A DNA stretch of 32,000 bases from Aquifex aeolicus VF5. Lineage in GTDB: Bacteria; Aquificota; Aquificia; Aquificales; Aquificaceae. The DNA lies in NCBI RefSeq assembly GCF_000008625.1, contig NC_000918.1, forward strand, positions 510,001-542,000, given 5' to 3'. Shown in pieces: positions 3,969 to 16,368 of this stretch. The notes under the pieces were generated by a model. That model was not told the DNA's origin and searched no databases. It saw only the letters and a program-made list of their open reading frames with translations. Position numbers and translations under genes: made by a program. Every line of letters starts with the position of its first letter. Position 1 is the stretch's first letter.

Positions 3969-6315
<2,347 letters not shown>

Positions 6316-7421: not shown

Positions 7422-8647
7422 TGCCTCTTTTCAAGTACAAGGCCGTAACTCCTGAAGGAAGAGTAGTTGAGGGGCAGGGGGAGTTCCCTTCAGTTTTAGA
7501 ACTTTACGAAAGGCTCAGTGCCCAAGGATTGACACTTATTTCTTACAAAACGATAAAGGAAGAAGTCAAGAAAGGGTTTGAGATAAACATTCCTTTACCC
7601 TTTGGTAGTGTATCGGAAAGGGATTGGTCCCTTTTGTGCAGACAGCTTTCCGTTCTCGTGGGAGCCGGCGTAAGCATAGTAGAGGCTATAGAACTCGTCG
7701 CCGAGCAAATGCAAAACAAGAAGTTAAGAAAAGCACTTATGGAAACGGCAAAGGATATAGAGGAAGGAAGTTCCATACACGATGCCCTTGCAAAGAGAAA
7801 GAACATATTCCCCGAATTTCTTATAAACCTTGTGGAAGTAGGGGAAGAGACGGGTGAACTTGATCTCGTTTTAAGAAGGGCAGCGGAGTATTACGAAAAG
7901 ATAGCGTTTATAAAAGGGAAGATAAAGAGTGCGTCCTTTTATCCGACTTTTGTTATGATCTTTGCAACGGCTATAGTGTGGTTCATTCTGACCTTCGTAG
8001 TACCCAAATTTGCCGAAATTTATAAGTCTTTAGGTGGAACACTTCCCGCTCCTACACAGCTCTTAATAGATATCTCATTAACGCTCCAGAGGAATATTCC
8101 CTACATCTTAGGTACTCTACTGATTTCGGTAGCGGTATTCCTTTACTTTTACAGGACAAACCTGAAGTTCAGGGCTTTAATTCACAGAATTTTACTTAGA
8201 TTGCCTGTTTTTGGAGGGATATTTAAAAAGGGTGCCTTTGCAAGGTTTGCAAGAACTATGGCAACGCTTTTTGCTTCAGGTGTTCCCCTTGAAAGAGTTC
8301 TGGAAATCTCCGGAAGGGTTGTAGGTTTTATTCCTATAGAAAAGGCCCTTAACGAAGCAAGAAAAGAAGTTTTAGAGGGTAAAAACCTGTGGATGGCACT
8401 CCAGAATACTGAAATGTTTCCCAAAATGATAATAGCTATGGTAAGGGTAGGTGAGGAAACAGGACAGATGGATCAGATGCTGAACTCCATAGCGAACTTT
8501 TACGAAGAAGAGGTGGACAGGAGCATAGAGGGACTTGTTGCTCTCATAGAACCGGCGTTGATAGTAATTCTCGGAGTGATTATAGGTGCTATACTCATAG
8601 CCCTATACCTGCCTATATTCAACATCGGAAGTTTCATAATCAGGTAA
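7421..8647 (+). CDS. pilC: type IV pilus assembly platform protein PilC (T2SS protein F family)
   Basis: Two T2SSF repeats ([12 protein letters not shown] and [12 protein letters not shown]) and 3 TM segments. GTG start overlaps the pilT stop by 1 nt. Confidence 0.85.
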
Positions 8648-9428
8648 TCCTCTTGTATATAAGGTCTAGAAGGTATCTGAGTTCTTGGCTTTCCTTGAAA
8701 ATTTCTTTTTCTTTTAGTTCTTCGTATAGTTTTTTTATTTCTTCTTTTAAACATTCTCCGAGTTTCTCGTAAAATCCATCTTTGTCAAGGTAGTCGTCAA
8801 CCATTTGAAAGAGTAAGCCTACTTTTCTGCCAATACTTTCCATCTCCTTGAGTTTTTCCCTTCTCTTCGCTACCACAGCTCCGCACATAAAGCAAGCTTC
8901 AAAGAGTGCCCCTGTTTTTTTTACACTGACCTCGTAGAGGTCCTCATACCCCTTTATGTCAAGAACCTGTCCCCCTACCATTCCGTTAGAACCTGCCTTT
9001 TGAGCGATAATTTTGTTTATCTCAAGTATCTCTTCACAGGAAAGGGTTTTGTAATTTTCCCTTTGTGATAGGACCTCAAAGGTGTAAGTCAGGAGTGCAT
9101 CTCCCGCAAGGAGTGCCATCGCTTCTCCGAACTTTATGTGGCACGTAGGGAGGCCTCTTCTCCAGACATCGTTGTCCATACAGGGAAGATCGTCGTGTAT
9201 AAGGGAGTAGTTGTGAATGAGTTCTATACCAGAGCCAACGGTTATAGCATCATCTTCATTCCCTCCGAGAGCACTTGCGACCGCAACCGTAAAGAGGGGT
9301 CTTATCCTCTTTCCCTTTTGTAAGGGATAGTACTTCATAGCTTCTATTAATTCTTCTGGACCTTCGGGTTTCAGGATTTCATTAAGTCTTTTTTCTATTT
9401 TTTCTTTCCAGGTTTCTATCCTTTCCAT
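8640..9428 (-). CDS. ispA: short-chain trans-polyprenyl diphosphate synthase (FPP/GGPP synthase)
   Basis: First Asp-rich motif [17 protein letters not shown] and second Asp-rich motif FQMVDDYLD. 262 aa. Confidence 0.85.
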
Positions 9429-9441
9429 AAGGCTTTTAAGT

Positions 9442-10167
9442 TTAAAGTAAAACTTTTTCTAAGTGAAGGCCCTGAGGCGGAGCGGTGTAAGGAGAGTTTC
9501 CCTTTCCTTGGAGTAGTTCCTCCAGTACTTCTTCCGAATAGAGTCCCAAGGAAATCTTGACGGCCGTTCCCACGATTCTTCTCACCATATACCTCAAAAA
9601 ATGAGAAGCCTTTAGCCTTATTTCTATTAGAGGGTATTCCACATTCAAACTTACCTCTTCAAGGTTTATTACTGTGTTCCTTTCCTCTTCCAATTTTGTA
9701 AGAGCTCTGAAGTCGTGAGTTCCTTCAAACTTCTTAAGGATATTTCTAAGGACTTCCGTATTTATTTCCCTTTTTACCTGCCATGAAAAAGGATAAAGGA
9801 AGGGATTTCTCACTTCTGAGTTCCATATCTTATACAGGTAAACCTTCCCTTTTACGGAATAGCGTGCGTTGAATTCTTCGGAAACTTTCTTAACCGCGTA
9901 AACTCCTACGTCTTTGGGAAGAATTCCGTTTAGGGCTTTTAGCAATTTTTCCTCTGGAAAGTCCTTCTGGGTTTTGAAGTTTGCAATGTAATCTAGAGCG
10001 TGGACACCGGAATCGGTTCTGCAGCAGCCTGTCACTTTAACGTCTTCACACAGAATTTGGGAAAGAGCCTTCTGAATTTCTCCCTGAACGGTTCTTAAGT
10101 TCGGTTGAACTTGCCATCCGTAAAAGTTTGTACCAACGAAAGCGAGGCGAAGGAGGTAATTAGGCAT
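9442..10167 (-). CDS. truA: tRNA pseudouridine(38-40) synthase
   Basis: [20 protein letters not shown]-terminus; catalytic [10 protein letters not shown]; RYMVRRIVG. Confidence 0.9.
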
Positions 10168-11122
10168 GCTTTTTCAGTTCTTCCTTTATCCTCTCTATAG
10201 TTTTCACGGGAACGGGATCGTAACCATAGAGTTCTGCAAGGAATACACTTACCCAGTCCGCAAGGTGCACCAGGTAAAGACTTCTCGCAAGGTAAGAGTT
10301 TCCTTCTCCTTTGAGCATTATCGGAACTACTCCGAAATCCTCCAGAATTTTTTTCGTTATATCCACCCTCAGCTTTACCCTGTGGTGGTCCTTTTCGTCG
10401 AACATCAAAAGGTAAACGAACTTATTTCTGAGTTCAGGATTGCTCCAGCCCATGACTTCGTTGTGGTGCATCTCGGGAAGAATGGTAAAGTAAGCAGGGG
10501 ATTTTGAGTTTTCGTTTATCTGTCCTTTCCACCTTTCCGCTATGTGGGCAGTTAAAGGCGTGGAGTAAACCACTGGAATGTATCCGTAAATCCTGTTCGC
10601 TATTTCCTTGCCTTTCTGTTTTAAGCTTTCAAGGTTTTCCTTGAGGTTCTCCTTTGCATCTTCAAGCTCGTCTTTATCAACTCCGAGGAGGTTCAGAACT
10701 TTGGAGAGCATAAACCCGAGGGAGTATCTTGGTTGAAAACCCTTTGGAACCTCGTAAATCTCGCAGCCCTCTTCCTTTGCCCTTTCCATTAACTTGCCGT
10801 TTGAAGTAATACATAAGGGCTTTATTCCCCTCCCTATAGCTTCCTCAAAGTTGGAGAGGGTTTCTTCAGTATTACCGCTGTAGCTGATACAAAAAACGAG
10901 ATAGTCCCTATCTACAAAGGGAGGAAGTGTGTAGTCTTTCACTACAAAAGTGGGTTTATTAAAACTTCTGTGTTCCAGCCACTTGCTCGCAAAACTTCCT
11001 ATTATTCCGCTCCCTCCCATTCCGCAAAAGACTATACCTTTGTAGGGGGTGAGGTCCTTAGCTATGTCTTCCCACTCAAACTGGTTGTAAAATCCCTCCA
11101 CCACTTTGTAAACTTCTTCCAT
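10160..11122 (-). CDS. SIS-domain bifunctional phosphoglucose/phosphomannose isomerase (PGI/PMI family)
   Basis: About 320 aa. FCGMGGSGIIGSF and ISYSGNTEET SIS motifs; C-terminal PEMHHNEVMGW motif. The length and layout match the short archaeal-type PGI/PMI rather than classical Pgi. Confidence 0.7.
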   Translation of the reverse strand: MEEVYKVVEGFYNQFEWEDIAKDLTPYKGIVFCGMGGSGIIGSFASKWLEHRSFNKPTFVVKDYTLPPFVDRDYLVFCISYSGNTEETLSNFEEAIGRGIKPLCITSNGKLMERAKEEGCEIYEVPKGFQPRYSLGFMLSKVLNLLGVDKDELEDAKENLKENLESLKQKGKEIANRIYGYIPVVYSTPLTAHIAERWKGQINENSKSPAYFTILPEMHHNEVMGWSNPELRNKFVYLLMFDEKDHHRVKLRVDITKKILEDFGVVPIMLKGEGNSYLARSLYLVHLADWVSVFLAELYGYDPVPVKTIERIKEELKKHA

Positions 11123-11155
11123 GGGAAAAATTATAAGGGGAAAGAAGAGAAAAGA

Positions 11156-13126
11156 TTAAACTTCTTCTACGGGAGTCTTTTGTATTTCTTCTACCGCCTT
11201 TAGGAGTGCGAGTCCGGACTTGTGGAGAGAGTTCTGTCCCAGTATGCCTATGAGTCTCAGGAGAGAAAGTTCGTTTAAGAATGTTTCGTGGTCAAGTCCC
11301 GTCATCTTTTCTACTTCCTCAAACTGTTTTGGGAGAATCCTCACCTTTTCTTCCTTTACGTAAAGGTTTCCTACCTTGGATATGGCTTCCACAATTCTGT
11401 ACATGAAGGGGTTTACAGGGTTGCCGAGTCCTTCGGGAACGGAGGATACAGCTTCCTTTATGAGTTCTCCTGCCTTTGTGAGAACGAGTCCTTCATTAGG
11501 AAGGACGTCCAGAAATCCTCTTGCCTGAAGTTTTTCAACCGCGAGGTGAACTTCCTCTTTCATAACTTCGTCGAATTCCTTGAAGAGTTCACTCAGGAAC
11601 ATTCCCGCTTTTGGTATCTTATGGAGAACCATGAGTTCAAACCTTGTGAGGTGTGGCTTTCTCTTTATGGTGTATGCGAGCTCAGAGTACAGCCTTCCGC
11701 TGTCAGTGGGTGCTCCCGTTCTCACGAGTACCTCATCTACAGCCTGCTTGTACCACTCGTAATTGGGGGCCATAAACTCCCTCTTTGTTATTGTGATAGC
11801 CTTAACACCGGTGGCGGTGATATCCCTTATTCCGTGCTTTTCAAGGTCCTCCAGAACTTTTTTGCCGTGCTCCGTGGGAACGTAATAAAGTTCTCCCTTT
11901 TCTGTGAGCTCAGTCGTTATTAAGTCAAAAGACTCAAGTGAATAAAGGGCTTCCGTAACCAGATCCATCATCTTCTTGTACCACTCTCCGCCCTTTTCGT
12001 AGAAGTGTTTGAAAAGCTCTTCAACGGTTTTTAGTTCCTGGAATTTTTTCTTTATTTCTTCTTTCTTCTTGTAATTAAAGTCCTGATTTATCTTCCTTCC
12101 GTAGTATTCAACGAGGTGTTTGTACTCCTTTAGGGGTCTCAGTAGCATTTCCCTGACTATTTCCTCTTTAGTGGGTAAGGGTCCAGCCTGTTCCTGGTGT
12201 TTCTTGAGGAGTTTGTCTATCGTTTTCAGTATTTCTTCCTCAAAGACTTCAAGGTTGAAGGTTCTGTAGAAGGGGTAGCTCTTCTTTTTCCAGAGTTTGT
12301 AAACTTCGAGGAGTTTTTCGCCTGCGGGAAGAAGGTTTCCTTGGTCGTCAAAGAGTCCGAGCGCGTACATAACTTCTTGTCCCGCTTCGGGAAGTTTTTG
12401 TATTCCCTCGTCAAGGGCGGTTACGAAGTCCTCCAGAATGTCTTCCGATATAAGTGTGTCTAAACTGAAGGGCATAACCCTCAGGGTTTGCTCCACCGCC
12501 TGACCGAGTCCCGTCAGGGCGTATACGTCGGAGTTGGGAACTGAAAAGGCTATGAGTCTCATGGACTCAAGGAGCAGGGGAAAGTGTTTTCCTTCAGGGA
12601 GCATACTCTTTTCTGCGGGACCAGGAGGCATCTTCCTTATATATTCCGCAAGCTCCCGTGAGATTTCCAGTTTAGGCGTTATCTCGTTGTAAATTTCGTA
12701 AACGGCTTTTGCGTATTCATTTACGGTCTTTATCTTTCCTTTCTTTTCCACTTCCACTTCTTCTAAAAAGCCCCTTTCCATTAGGGCGTGCTCTATCTTC
12801 TCTCCCGGTCTGCCGTCGTTGAGGATTGTGGAGTGTATCATGCTGATTATTTCCGAGCCTATCCACCTGAAGTGCTCGTCCCAGTTCTCTGGGTGCGGAA
12901 TGTAACCCTTGTCTATCATCTCGTGGAGGAGGTTCACGAGAGCCTCACCCCAGTAGGTAAGGGTGTACTCGAGGGGTTTTTCAAGCCTCACTAAGTTCTG
13001 AAACTCAAGTTCTAAGAAAACTTCTTCTTCTCTCGTTTTTTCCGCAACCTTGTAAGTAGGTTCTCCTCTTTCTTTTGCTTCCTTTACAGCTAGGAGTGCC
13101 AGAGCGTGTTCCCTCATTATAATCAT
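11156..13126 (-). CDS. hypothetical 656-aa protein made of repeated winged-helix-like modules (last gene of prefoldin-like operon)
   Basis: Long ORF with an ATGA overlap to the upstream gene. It has repeated '(L/P)T..G..hh' wing/helix signatures (TLTYWGEALVNLL, ALTGLGQAVEQTL, LLPAGEKLLEVY, VPTEHGKKVLEDL, LVLTKAGELIKEA, LHKSGLALLKAVEE). Confidence 0.85.
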   Translation of the reverse strand: MIIMREHALALLAVKEAKERGEPTYKVAEKTREEEVFLELEFQNLVRLEKPLEYTLTYWGEALVNLLHEMIDKGYIPHPENWDEHFRWIGSEIISMIHSTILNDGRPGEKIEHALMERGFLEEVEVEKKGKIKTVNEYAKAVYEIYNEITPKLEISRELAEYIRKMPPGPAEKSMLPEGKHFPLLLESMRLIAFSVPNSDVYALTGLGQAVEQTLRVMPFSLDTLISEDILEDFVTALDEGIQKLPEAGQEVMYALGLFDDQGNLLPAGEKLLEVYKLWKKKSYPFYRTFNLEVFEEEILKTIDKLLKKHQEQAGPLPTKEEIVREMLLRPLKEYKHLVEYYGRKINQDFNYKKKEEIKKKFQELKTVEELFKHFYEKGGEWYKKMMDLVTEALYSLESFDLITTELTEKGELYYVPTEHGKKVLEDLEKHGIRDITATGVKAITITKREFMAPNYEWYKQAVDEVLVRTGAPTDSGRLYSELAYTIKRKPHLTRFELMVLHKIPKAGMFLSELFKEFDEVMKEEVHLAVEKLQARGFLDVLPNEGLVLTKAGELIKEAVSSVPEGLGNPVNPFMYRIVEAISKVGNLYVKEEKVRILPKQFEEVEKMTGLDHETFLNELSLLRLIGILGQNSLHKSGLALLKAVEEIQKTPVEEV

Positions 13127-13422
13127 TTGCCTTCACCTCCGAACATTTTTAATTCATCCTCTATGAGTTTTTGGGCTTCTTCCTTGCTCACTTCCACGTA
13201 AAGTTTCCCCACGAGGTAGTAAAACTTCCTGTTTGAGTCAAACTTCTCAAGGGCTTCCTTTGCGAGCTTCAGCTCTTTCTCCATTATATCCCTCTCAAGG
13301 GCTTCCAAAAGCTCAATTGCTTCCTTTACCTTTTCCTCCCTTATGTAGCCCTCTTCCGCTCTGCTCCTTTGCTCAAGGGCTCCTTTTAAAAGGTTTGTTA
13401 TGGCTTTTAATCTCTCAAGCAT
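13123..13422 (-). CDS. prefoldin-beta-like coiled-coil protein, C-terminally short (99 aa)
   Basis: GGAGGTG SD 7 nt upstream. About 60-residue heptad helix, then the beta-hairpin-like KFYYLVGKLYVEVSKEEAQKLIEDEL, which resembles the prefoldin beta core (vYk.vG.vlv.v.keea...l). Confidence 0.6.
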   Translation of the reverse strand: MLERLKAITNLLKGALEQRSRAEEGYIREEKVKEAIELLEALERDIMEKELKLAKEALEKFDSNRKFYYLVGKLYVEVSKEEAQKLIEDELKMFGGEGK

Positions 13423-14143
13423 CTTTCTTCACCTCCGTCCAGCCTGCTGTTTTTTTCTCGGAAGGAACGTAAATAACACTTCTCGGTCTGATATCAAGTC
13501 GGTAAAGTCTCCTTATTCTGTTTCTTATCTCCTTGTCCCCCCAGAACCAGAAGAGTCGGCCTCCGAAGGGGGCTGTGGTCCAAAAGCCTACTCTTAAAGG
13601 GATTTCCCAGTTTTTCATTTCAGAGAGGAGGTTTTTATGGAATATCTCACCTATCGGGTGGTCACGAACGAGCGTAAGTTCCGCGTGGGCGAGGGCTTCC
13701 GCGTAGGAGTGGCATGCGGACCTTAGTTTCTCGTAGTTATTTGCTTTAACTTCAAACTCCGCTACACCCTCAAACACTTCACTCTTGAAGTAGTCCTTAA
13801 AATCCTTCCTCTTCAAGTCGTAAACTTCTACCACCTTTTCCTTAATCCCTTCGGAAGACAGGTAAACCTTTTCGGGAACTTCTATACTTTCTATAAACTC
13901 TTTTTCCGCTTCAAATACCATTTTTTCTATTTCCCTCACGAATTTTCTGAGGGAGGTTCTTTTGTGCCTTTTTACGTAGTTCTTTACCTTCGTGTTTAGA
14001 GCTTTGTCCTTTTTCAGGAAGTAGTAAACGAGAGCGTCTTTTATAGCCTCTTTTATTTCACTTCCGGGAATGAATTTCTTACCGTTTTCTTCGGGAAATT
14101 TCTTAGAAGAGAGGAGAACGGGACTCCATGCAAGCAACTTCAT
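13415..14143 (-). CDS. hypothetical 242-aa protein with Cas RAMP-like motifs
   Basis: GGAGG SD and a 4-nt overlap with the upstream gene. N-terminal WSPVLLSS...[17 protein letters not shown] (compare RAMP tPl.iG...IPGSSlKGalR); glycine-rich [15 protein letters not shown]; C-terminal AGWTEV. Confidence 0.8.
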
Positions 14144-14829
14144 TTGAATTCCTCCAGTGCGGTGTTTGCCTTTTCTGAAATATCTATGTCAAAAAGGGCT
14201 ATCGTGGGAAGGAGCCAGGACACCCTGAAGCGGTTGTCCTTTTCTCTAGTCTTTCCGAAGTAAGCGAGGGCTACCCTTCCGAAGCCCGCCATCTTTTCTA
14301 CCTTCTTAGCTCTTTCAAGGAAATCCCTGGCAACCAAGGGAAGTTTTTTGTAGGGGAGCGGAAGGCTTTCTCTTCCCCTTTGTTTGTAGAATTCCGTAAT
14401 GACACCCACGCTCTTTAGGTTGTTGGCGAGCTCATGGAGTCTGTGTTTTTTGAAGAACGCCATCAAGAGTGTTGGGGCGGGGGTTCTCAGAATTTCAAGA
14501 TTTTCTTTTCCTTCTCTCAGCTCCGCTACTATATAGGCCACACCCTCACTCGTCTCTATGTGGGCGAATAACTTTTTATTCTCTGGAAGTTCAAGGAGTA
14601 TTTCTTCTATTTCATACGTAGCCCCTCCCTCCTCCCACTTATCCCCAACCTCCCTGCCTGCTTGTGAAGCAAAAAAGGTTCGAACGCCGTTTTTCTTTCC
14701 GAGTATCAAGTCAAAGCCCCACCTTCTCAAATCCTGTATTGTAAACTCCCTTTCCTTCTCAGGTTGTCCCAATGTTTCAAAGACGAGTGTGTTTAGGGCT
14801 ATCTTTTCTACGAGTTCCTTTTTATCCAT
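14140..14829 (-). CDS. hypothetical 229-aa soluble protein
   Basis: GAGGTG SD. Overlaps both neighbours. No family recognised by eye. C-terminal G-rich segment [13 protein letters not shown]. Confidence 0.8.
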
Positions 14830-15361
14830 TTAGGCTCACCTCTTCGTTTATGCGTGCCATCAGGTAATTCGCGGTTATTTCAAGGGCAAACACAAAGAGC
14901 GTTATCACCGCAGCTCCCCAGAAAGCACCCTCAAAGTAGTTCCCTATGGTAAGAGCTCCGAGGAGGTCAAACTTAGAAAGGAGCATTATGATGAGCATGA
15001 GTGTGAAAATTCCGTAGTAAGCGTACCTGTAGTAATCAAGTCCCGCAAGCCACAGGGCTAAAAGTGCAGGAATGGATAGGTTTTCGGTTCTCTCTACTGG
15101 TTCGTTTGTTTTTTTTGCAAGTTCTCTTCTGTCTATTTCTTTGTTGGTGAGAAAAGCTTCCGCGGTAATTACAAAACTCCCGTAACCGAAGAGGAGTTTA
15201 TTTGCAAACACAAGAGCCCCCAGAAATCCGAGTAAAAACGCAAAACCTTCGGGTGTTAGTACTACGAGGAGAGTTGATACGAATATCCCGGTAAAGGCGA
15301 AAAAGAGAAGTGTCGCAAAGAGTATTACAAGTATCCATTGGGATACACTTTCAGCCTTCAT
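14822..15361 (-). CDS. hypothetical polytopic membrane protein (about 5-6 TM)
   Basis: AGGAGGAG SD and an ATGA overlap. Long hydrophobic stretches are separated by a charged loop ([20 protein letters not shown]). Confidence 0.8.
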
Positions 15362-15855
15362 TTACTCTCCTCCTTTTTCTCTTCCTTCTTTTCCGTCTGT
15401 TGTTTTTCCTTAACTCCGTAAGTGAAGGGGTGAACAACCGTGTATATGTCCTGTGAAAGTGGGTGCGTGTATGTGAATGTGGCGACTACGAGGTCCCCAA
15501 CTTTCAACTTTTCCGTTCCCTCTTTTAGCTTTAGCTCAACTATGGCAACGCTGAGAGGTGGAATTGTAACGTTTGCGGGAATGTTTGAAAGAACGTATCC
15601 CTTTTCTTTACTTTCCTTTCCAGGGGTAAAAACAAAGGCCTTTTCGGTAATTTTTATTGGGAGTGTTCCGGGATTGGATATGGTGTAGGCTATAAGGTGT
15701 TTCTCCTTATTATAGGTAGCACTCAGAACTATGGGGGAGCCGGGAATGTTTTGAAATTGTTTGAGGAGTTTTGAAGAGGTAAAGTAAGAGCCGACCCCAC
15801 CTCCCACGAGGAGGCCAGCCAAGGCTATCATCGTTCCTATCACAAAGTACCTCAT
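15358..15855 (-). CDS. hypothetical membrane-anchored protein with beta-rich ectodomain and K/E-rich tail
   Basis: GGAGGAGG SD. N-terminal TM anchor MRYFVIGTMIALAGLLVGGGVGSYF, then a beta-strand-patterned domain of about 110 aa, then the [17 protein letters not shown] tail. Confidence 0.8.
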   Translation of the reverse strand: MRYFVIGTMIALAGLLVGGGVGSYFTSSKLLKQFQNIPGSPIVLSATYNKEKHLIAYTISNPGTLPIKITEKAFVFTPGKESKEKGYVLSNIPANVTIPPLSVAIVELKLKEGTEKLKVGDLVVATFTYTHPLSQDIYTVVHPFTYGVKEKQQTEKKEEKKEESK

Positions 15856-16304
15856 TATTTTTTAGCCTCCTCCTGTCCAACTTTTCTTACTTCTTCGAGA
15901 AGTTCTTCAATTTTGTTGTAGAGATCGGCTATCGCTTCCTCAAGTGCCCTCCTTAGAGCTTCCAGAGCTGCTATTTCCTTTCTTATCCTGTCTACCGCCT
16001 CGTCGTAGCTCATTACCGCGGATATTCCCGTTCCTATGCTCATTATCACCTCGTCAACGCCTTCACTCTTTGCCTTTATCTGTGCGGTAGCTCCTACGGG
16101 TATGAGCACTTCTTTACCCTTTCCGAGTTCCTTTAAGCTTCTTAGAGTAGCTTCTGCGGTTCTGAGGTCCGTTATGGATTGATTGATAACGGAAATTTCA
16201 GCCCTGAGGGCTTCAATGTTAGCCATGTAACCCCTGAGCTGTCTGTTTAGCTCATCCATTTTTTGCTCAGGAGTTTTTTGAACTTCCTTCTTCTCTTCTG
16301 CCAT
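15855..16304 (-). CDS. pfdA: prefoldin alpha subunit-like protein (archaeal GimC-alpha type)
   Basis: Coiled coil, then a double beta-hairpin core KEVLIPVGATAQIKAKSEGVDEVIMSIGTGISAVMSYDEAV, then a second coiled coil, as in archaeal PfdA. The ORF track starts at GTG 16313, but GGAGG (16314-16318) sits 9 nt upstream of ATG 16304, which I prefer. Confidence 0.8.
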   Translation of the reverse strand: MAEEKKEVQKTPEQKMDELNRQLRGYMANIEALRAEISVINQSITDLRTAEATLRSLKELGKGKEVLIPVGATAQIKAKSEGVDEVIMSIGTGISAVMSYDEAVDRIRKEIAALEALRRALEEAIADLYNKIEELLEEVRKVGQEEAKK

Positions 16305-16340
16305 CTTACCCACCTCCTATTAAGGTTTACATATAATTTT

Positions 16341-16368
16341 ATTATATTCCTTTTAAAAATTTTTGCAA
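16341..16368 (-). promoter_or_regulatory. candidate sigma70-type promoter of the prefoldin-like operon
   Basis: On the minus strand: -35 TTGCAA (16368-16363), 16-nt spacer, perfect -10 TATAAT (16346-16341). This gives a leader of about 30 nt to the ATG at 16304. Confidence 0.45.

Follow-up and report, generated by a model that had tools for sequence, protein, structure and literature searches.

The window analyzed here, a 32-kb stretch of the Aquifex aeolicus VF5 genome, raises the question of what a protein resembling a subunit of CRISPR effector complexes does in an operon that contains no other cas gene. Of the 1,590,791 bases of the genome, 1,551,335 belong to the larger of its two contigs. 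The gene in question, presumably aq_755, is located at positions 13415–14143 on the minus strand, starts with ATG and codes for a protein of 242 aa, which a preliminary description of the window had characterized as a RAMP-like protein, possibly recruited into a non-CRISPR operon.

Relationship to Csm5

We found that the 242-aa ORF is a true Csm5 derivative. Three motifs had been quoted as evidence of RAMP likeness; they are present in the translation in the order stated, and the likeness was above chance. The Csm5 profile TIGR01899 matched residues 13–82 (E value 1.7e-6, 27.8 bits with a cut-off of 38.3), six PADLOC Csm5 models matched at E values from 4.5e-7 to 2e-5, and all ten Foldseek matches at E≤0.001 came from structures of type III-A Csm complexes or from Csm5 crystals. 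The predicted structure, modeled from 44 homologs (pLDDT 95.6), has the core RAMP/RRM fold of the Cas7-group RAMP superfamily. Its best match among 48,161 chains was Thermococcus onnurineus Csm5 (6mur_F; Z score 16.7, rmsd 2.8, 224 of 242 residues aligned); four Csm5 representatives scored between 14.5 and 16.7, the next chain 8.1, and other Cas7-group chains 6–8. Besides, a TM score of 0.85 was obtained between the model and a 387-aa RAMP cluster in the Atlas, and hhalign aligned the family of short proteins with canonical Csm5 at a probability of 98.6 (E value 8e-16), starting at template column 88–100. By sequence profiles the resemblance is consistent if weak: PF03787 did not match the 242-aa protein in a profile search, TIGR01899 matched only 8 of 44 family members at E≤0.01, and neither Pfam nor NCBIfam has a model for the family. 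In a tree with midpoint root and a small outgroup, 46 short and 13 canonical Csm5 sequences were separated by a branch with 100/100 support.

The N-terminal capping domain of Csm5 is deleted in the short family, while the RAMP core, a helical subdomain and a thumb-like hairpin are retained. The distance between the β1-loop and the PG motif is 19 residues, compared with 92–127 in 13 canonical Csm5 proteins. Residues 45–175 had been regarded as a helical insertion, a view that the model does not bear out: core strands and a hairpin at 92–129 lie in this region, which is part of the Csm5 body in the alignment of 224 residues, and the true difference is a deletion of approximately 75–105 residues near the N-terminus. 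In solved complexes, the capping domain has been reported to block the filament formed by Csm2 and to contact target RNA, and the conserved RNA contacts of Csm5 to be made by the β1-loop, α1, the thumb and the β3′-loop (PMC10289348). Two of these elements are altered. The HIGxG-type β1-loop, found in 12 of 13 canonical sequences, is absent from the short family, and the Gly of the α1 KG motif (13/13 canonical) is Glu in 37 of 44 short homologs, with the following Arg surviving in 6; α1 of the Aquifex protein looks more canonical than that of most family members. Conservation of the IPGS, G-loop and GW positions had also been expected. It holds for PG, for R-x-G of the G-loop and for the terminal GW, which are kept across the 44 homologs (R184 in 42, G186 in 44, G195 in 36, G234 in 43 and W235 in 41), and it fails for the Ser of IPGS, kept in only 6. 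The G-loop and terminal strand typical of the RAMP superfamily are thus both present, the second Gly being placed further out than in canonical Csm5.

Other positions are conserved only in the short proteins, including S146 (43/44), E155 and P220 (42/44 each), W188 (41/44) and F200, W201 and R207 (39/44 each). Conserved basic residues include K45 (38/44) and K204 (37/44), and the median net charge is +4 versus +6 to +32 in canonical Csm5. With the deletion, the motif changes and these new conserved positions, the family has lost the parts that serve the Csm complex and has gained a new set of conserved residues, which we assume to form one binding surface. In comparison with Csm5 (6MUR, chain F), the short proteins share the fold, the order of motifs, PG, R-x-G and the terminal GW; they differ in length (about 240 versus 315–400 aa), in the missing capping domain and in the altered β1-loop and α1 crRNA motifs. 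In addition, no short copy examined was part of a csm operon, and the short form is present without Csm1–4. Several features that identify Csm5 are accordingly lacking, i.e. a TIGR01899 score above cut-off, the capping domain, the HIGxG/KGxxR crRNA-contact motifs and linkage to csm1–4.

Distribution and independence from CRISPR

Short Csm5 is a distinct family of about 240 aa and not a one-off. Of 151 Aquificota genomes, 50 have a single copy, which is near full length in 47 of them and partial in 3. The family is also represented in 7 of 151 Deinococcota, among them Thermus islandicus and Oceanithermus profundus, as well as in Thermodesulfatator; all of the named hosts are thermophiles. Full-length members have 229–261 aa, typically about 240, and dN/dS values of approximately 0.03–0.1 in six measurable pairs indicate purifying selection. 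A search at 50% representatives yielded no fused or longer forms, and one pattern scan of viral contigs yielded no copy. In Oceanithermus-like genomes, open frames of 412–416 aa suggested a fusion; this was rejected because the 164-aa gene upstream is in another frame, and the long frames were ascribed to the GC-rich DNA.

Neither a CRISPR array nor an Rfam RNA was found in the 32-kb window, profile searches revealed no other cas gene among the ten ORFs of 8640–16313, and genome-wide searches for RAMP, Cas6 and Cas10 proteins gave no further match inside the window. The lack of an array and of other cas genes nearby, asserted in the preliminary description, was therefore confirmed. This is true of the locus but not of the genome, which is not free of CRISPR: a type I-B set and a complete type III-B set with its own Cmr1 and Cmr6 are present at C1:245–263 kb, 260 kb from short csm5, as its only CRISPR systems, and short CRISPR arrays occur elsewhere. 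No Csm1 above cut-off was found in the A. aeolicus genome. We also observed a stand-alone cas6 that is intact and flanked by yidC and an HhH-GPD gene (G000:C1:106547–107290, minus strand), as well as a cas6 remnant interrupted by two TAG stops (C1:649198–649764, plus strand).

Across genomes, the presence of short Csm5 is independent of Csm1 and of cas loci. Csm1 was found in 25 of 50 carriers and in 38 of 101 non-carriers (Fisher p 0.16, computed on kin that are not independent). Three carriers that are 99% complete (G002, G044 and G063, two of them in 70–90 contigs) had no PF03787 match at all. Another carrier, G027, was negative by TIGR02578 and was considered as free of type III, but four RAMP genes were then found in it and it was dropped. 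Among 80 metagenome loci, which form 55 clusters at 90% identity and are in many cases on short contigs, no neighbor matched a panel of I-B, III-A and III-B proteins. Repeat arrays were located near only 2 of 101 short Csm5 loci, one of them an array of a type I-E locus. The whole family thus shows recruitment into non-CRISPR operons, no copy examined being in a cas operon.

The operon and its partner genes

In A. aeolicus, short csm5 is the fifth of seven overlapping genes on the minus strand. The operon begins with a prefoldin alpha subunit (15855–16313; TIGR00293 above cut-off), followed by a 165-aa protein with an N-terminal hydrophobic segment and without family match (15358–15855), a 179-aa hydrophobic, probably multi-pass membrane protein without Pfam match (14822–15361), a 229-aa UPF0128/TIGR00703 protein (14140–14829; PF03673, E value 9.6e-106), short csm5, a 99-aa prefoldin-beta-like protein (13123–13422; PF01920, E value 5.6e-7) and a 656-aa DUF505 protein (11156–13126; PF04458, E value 8.9e-254), all on the minus strand. 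Short csm5 overlaps the UPF0128 gene by 4 nt and the prefoldin-beta-like ORF by 8 nt, and the 165-aa and 179-aa proteins co-travel with the operon. DUF505 showed weak winged-helix/HTH matches below cut-off in the profile search and has no solved relative by sequence. The prefoldin alpha gene (archaeal-type) and the truncated beta-like gene, whose products have 58–99 aa and recur in Aquificota loci, form a pair that is conserved across many Aquificota, usually right after short csm5.

A sigma-70-like promoter candidate is located 28 nt ahead of the operon (16341–16368, minus strand; 10 of 12 positions matching, 16-nt spacer). The number of promoter matches in the upstream region is at chance level (8 versus 7.1 by chance), and a −35/−10 pair is found at the same position in many relatives. 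In most short Csm5 loci the leaders are approximately 25–40 nt, and the operon leader is too short for a guide RNA. A dyad of the type TTTAG-N5-CTAAA overlaps the −10 box in seven loci of one family (promoter regions of L016, L022 and L056); this Desulfurobacteriaceae-type dyad matches essentially only the operon promoter and is a possible operator. Heat-shock regulation through a HAIR-like box was considered and rejected, as genome-wide counts were at control level and the A. aeolicus window has no such box; no heat-shock operator was shared by the operons. A near-perfect inverted repeat resembling HAIR (HspR) does precede the operon in one Aquifex relative, some 75 nt before position 6167 of locus L059 (G016:C12:19080–19098).

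Two genes accompany short csm5 most regularly. UPF0128 and short Csm5 co-occur in 46 Aquificota genomes (exceptions 4 and 3) and are adjacent in 40 of the 46; of 60 metagenome loci that include DNA on the upstream side, 50 likewise have UPF0128 as the upstream gene. Three Deinococcota carriers lack it. DUF505 is found in 49 of 50 Aquificota carriers, mostly unlinked, and in 7 of 7 Deinococcota carriers it lies within about 0.5 kb upstream of short csm5 in the same operon. Both partners were detected in the control genome of Methanocaldococcus jannaschii and DUF505 in that of Thermotoga maritima, the UPF0128 gene of M. infernus has no short csm5 neighbor, and Methylomarinovum has UPF0128 with neither short Csm5 nor DUF505. 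Given this wider occurrence of the partner genes, short Csm5 appears to be an add-on to a UPF0128/DUF505 module that is itself more widespread. In G061, a complete genome without UPF0128 and short Csm5, DUF505 is split into two ORFs (L103:4891–6842, plus strand), which is consistent with decay of the module.

The remaining neighbors are variable, and many of them are chaperones or quality-control proteins. They include prefoldin alpha, the downstream neighbor in 29 of the 70 metagenome loci that include DNA on that side, YfdX (sometimes in tandem), DUF308 (the HdeD family), DUF1931 (a histone-fold doublet), DegP, BON and rhomboid plus NfeD-like proteins. No HNH or PD-(D/E)xK nuclease and no Cas5, Cas7 backbone or Cas10 protein was found among recurring neighbors, and no PADLOC model fits the partner genes. 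In one metagenome lineage the commonest downstream gene codes for a member of the NifB/NifX family (PF02579) that contains a His/Glu-rich stretch (L191:6690–7088, plus strand, and 31 similar ORFs); it is a close same-strand neighbor that mostly follows directly. In some relatives the operon is followed by DUF1931 (L051:11174–11623, plus strand) and UPF0114. Oceanithermus-type operons contain, between DUF505 and short csm5, a conserved 164-aa protein with weak HTH matches (L082:995–1489 and L047:6487–6984, both plus strand), and rhomboid and NfeD-like genes then follow in some of them.

It was proposed in 2006 that COG1851, found through the gene context of an A. aeolicus RAMP, is itself a putative RAMP unlinked to cas genes; the neighboring RAMP was named as COG1853/COG5551 (Cas6-type) without a locus tag (PMC1462988), and the proposal was repeated in 2011 (PMC3150331). 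UPF0128 is present once in A. aeolicus, away from all three cas6-like genes of the genome. If COG1851 is UPF0128, as we assume, the 2006 locus is therefore probably the short csm5 locus. That work, like ours, started from an A. aeolicus RAMP and its neighbors; it differs in that no Csm5-derived family was described. UPF0128 is the candidate for a second, Cas5-like RAMP in the operon; the 2006 assignment was not confirmed, nor was it refuted, by fold, Atlas or profile comparison. The UPF0128 model (pLDDT 96.6) is a strand-rich α/β protein with many invariant residues; its best Z score in the structure search was 5.1, the top 50 included no Cas chain, Foldseek gave no match at E≤0.001, Atlas TM scores were ≤0.32, and comparing its profile with that of the short Csm5 family yielded a probability of 0.1. 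Only residues 118–229 or so resemble small α/β sandwiches. A predicted complex of short Csm5 and UPF0128 scored 0.01, which is evidence neither way.

Possible function of short Csm5

These observations seem to point to exaptation, a CRISPR part given a new job. We suggest that a type III-A csm5 gene was copied once out of a CRISPR locus and then lost its capping domain, and that the cap-less protein may have been kept as an accessory subunit of the thermophile UPF0128/DUF505 module. It would be non-catalytic and would work without crRNA and without Csm2, Csm3 and Cas10. The retained RAMP-thumb body, together with W188, F200, W201, K204, R207 and R219-P220, may bind cellular single-stranded nucleic acid, most likely RNA, and the protein would couple this ligand to DUF505 and UPF0128 in the way Csm5, which binds the 3′ end of crRNA, couples crRNA to host nucleases. 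It has been shown that Csm5 recruits PNPase and RNase R and that, on its own, it does not cut RNA and stimulates PNPase (PMC9762709), so an adaptor role would need no new chemistry. The exchangeable neighbors suggest heat or protein-quality stress as the likeliest setting. We give this reading, a guide-independent nucleic-acid-binding adaptor or subunit of a thermophile stress module, a probability of roughly 0.4. A fuller version is more doubtful, in which cap-less Csm5 would contribute RNA binding to a UPF0128/DUF505 complex specific to thermophiles; under heat stress and without guide RNA, this complex would protect or turn over RNA or link it to chaperones.

Several findings weigh against parts of this adaptor model. 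The degenerate β1-loop and α1 motifs and the median charge of +4 argue against strong RNA binding, and the partners are not obligatory, as Deinococcota without UPF0128, Methylomarinovum and the unlinked DUF505 genes indicate. In favor of the stress setting, YfdX1, YfdX2 and HdeD have been described as a necessary envelope module within a known heat-resistance island (PMC8290217). YfdX, DUF308 and DegP of that island also occur beside short csm5 in several genomes, YfdX once or twice, but the island gene list names no RAMP, UPF0128 or DUF505 and only the neighbors are common. Against this setting, YfdX is described as periplasmic, whereas short Csm5 should be cytoplasmic; moreover, the commonest downstream gene of one lineage belongs to the NifB/NifX family rather than to heat-stress genes, and a shared heat-shock operator was not detected.

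The loss of HIGxG, the replacement of the crRNA-contacting Gly by Glu and the lower net charge would also fit a pure protein–protein adaptor or co-chaperone that binds no nucleic acid and uses its conserved Trp and Phe residues to dock a partner or an unfolded client. That the new conserved residues are largely aromatic and that chaperone-type neighbors recur agrees with such a role. We consider it possible if rather doubtful, as the basic residues R184, K204, R207 and K45 are highly conserved too, the RAMP body and the thumb-like hairpin are intact, and DUF505, the most constant partner, has winged-helix-type matches. This alternative shares with the nucleic-acid-binding adaptor the main claim, domestication away from CRISPR. 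A connection with guide RNAs is harder to maintain. HRAMP of Haloarchaea and ARAMP of Asgard archaea are array-less type III derivatives (PMC8730458, PMC12669027), and by analogy short Csm5 and UPF0128 might bind a small guide RNA encoded elsewhere, with DUF505 as the large subunit of a defence or regulatory effector. The proposal of COG1851 as a cas-unlinked RAMP (PMC1462988), the tight coupling of short csm5 and UPF0128 and the patchy distribution across phyla are in line with this view, and the systems have in common a type III-derived RAMP encoded without array or adaptation genes. However, HRAMP has Cas5 and Cas7 homologs and both systems typically have nucleases and are predicted to act in defence, whereas the short Csm5 locus has one recognizable RAMP, no nuclease among recurring neighbors and chaperone-type or uncharacterized genes around it. 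It is not accompanied by Cas5, a Cas7 backbone or Cas10, arrays, repeats and Rfam RNAs are lacking nearby, most leaders are short, PADLOC has no model for the partners, and the stable single copy under strong purifying selection is unlike defence genes, all of which make such an effector improbable.

Still less probable is an orphan subunit acting in trans on a host type III complex, for example as an alternative Cmr/Csm cap or a brake. A. aeolicus does have a type III-B locus and arrays, and its stand-alone cas6 at 106.5 kb illustrates that orphan cas genes occur there. But the genome has a complete Cmr set that includes Cmr1 and Cmr6 and has no Csm, some carriers lack type III RAMPs altogether, the occurrence of short Csm5 shows no association with Csm1, and the domain that contacts Csm2 is gone; the absence of copies in the viral contigs scanned points in the same direction. 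Finally, the score below the TIGR01899 cut-off and the missing PF03787 match might suggest a decaying cas relic or a chance resemblance, an idea refuted by the full-length fold match, the 47 intact near-full-length copies of constant length and the low dN/dS.

Searches of the literature on aq_755 or a stand-alone Csm5 in Aquifex returned nothing; most subscription journals lie outside their coverage, and an earlier description is possible. Searching the 2025 classification (PMC12669027) by keyword brought up HRAMP and ARAMP, and neither Csm5 nor stand-alone subunits turned up. For annotation pipelines, our results mean that short Csm5 should not count as evidence of type III-A. The adaptor model is directly testable, as the protein is small and the operon is present in the cultured Thermus islandicus. 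It would offer a first handle on UPF0128 and DUF505, two long-unexplained families of thermophiles, and on the retention of an archaeal-type prefoldin alpha in Aquificota. In the reviews consulted, derived class 1 systems (HRAMP, ARAMP and array-less I-E) have kept several Cas subunits and are read as defence; if the model is true, a lone Csm5 without its complex-specific domain would clearly exemplify how a piece of a CRISPR effector can be exapted for ordinary cell biology.
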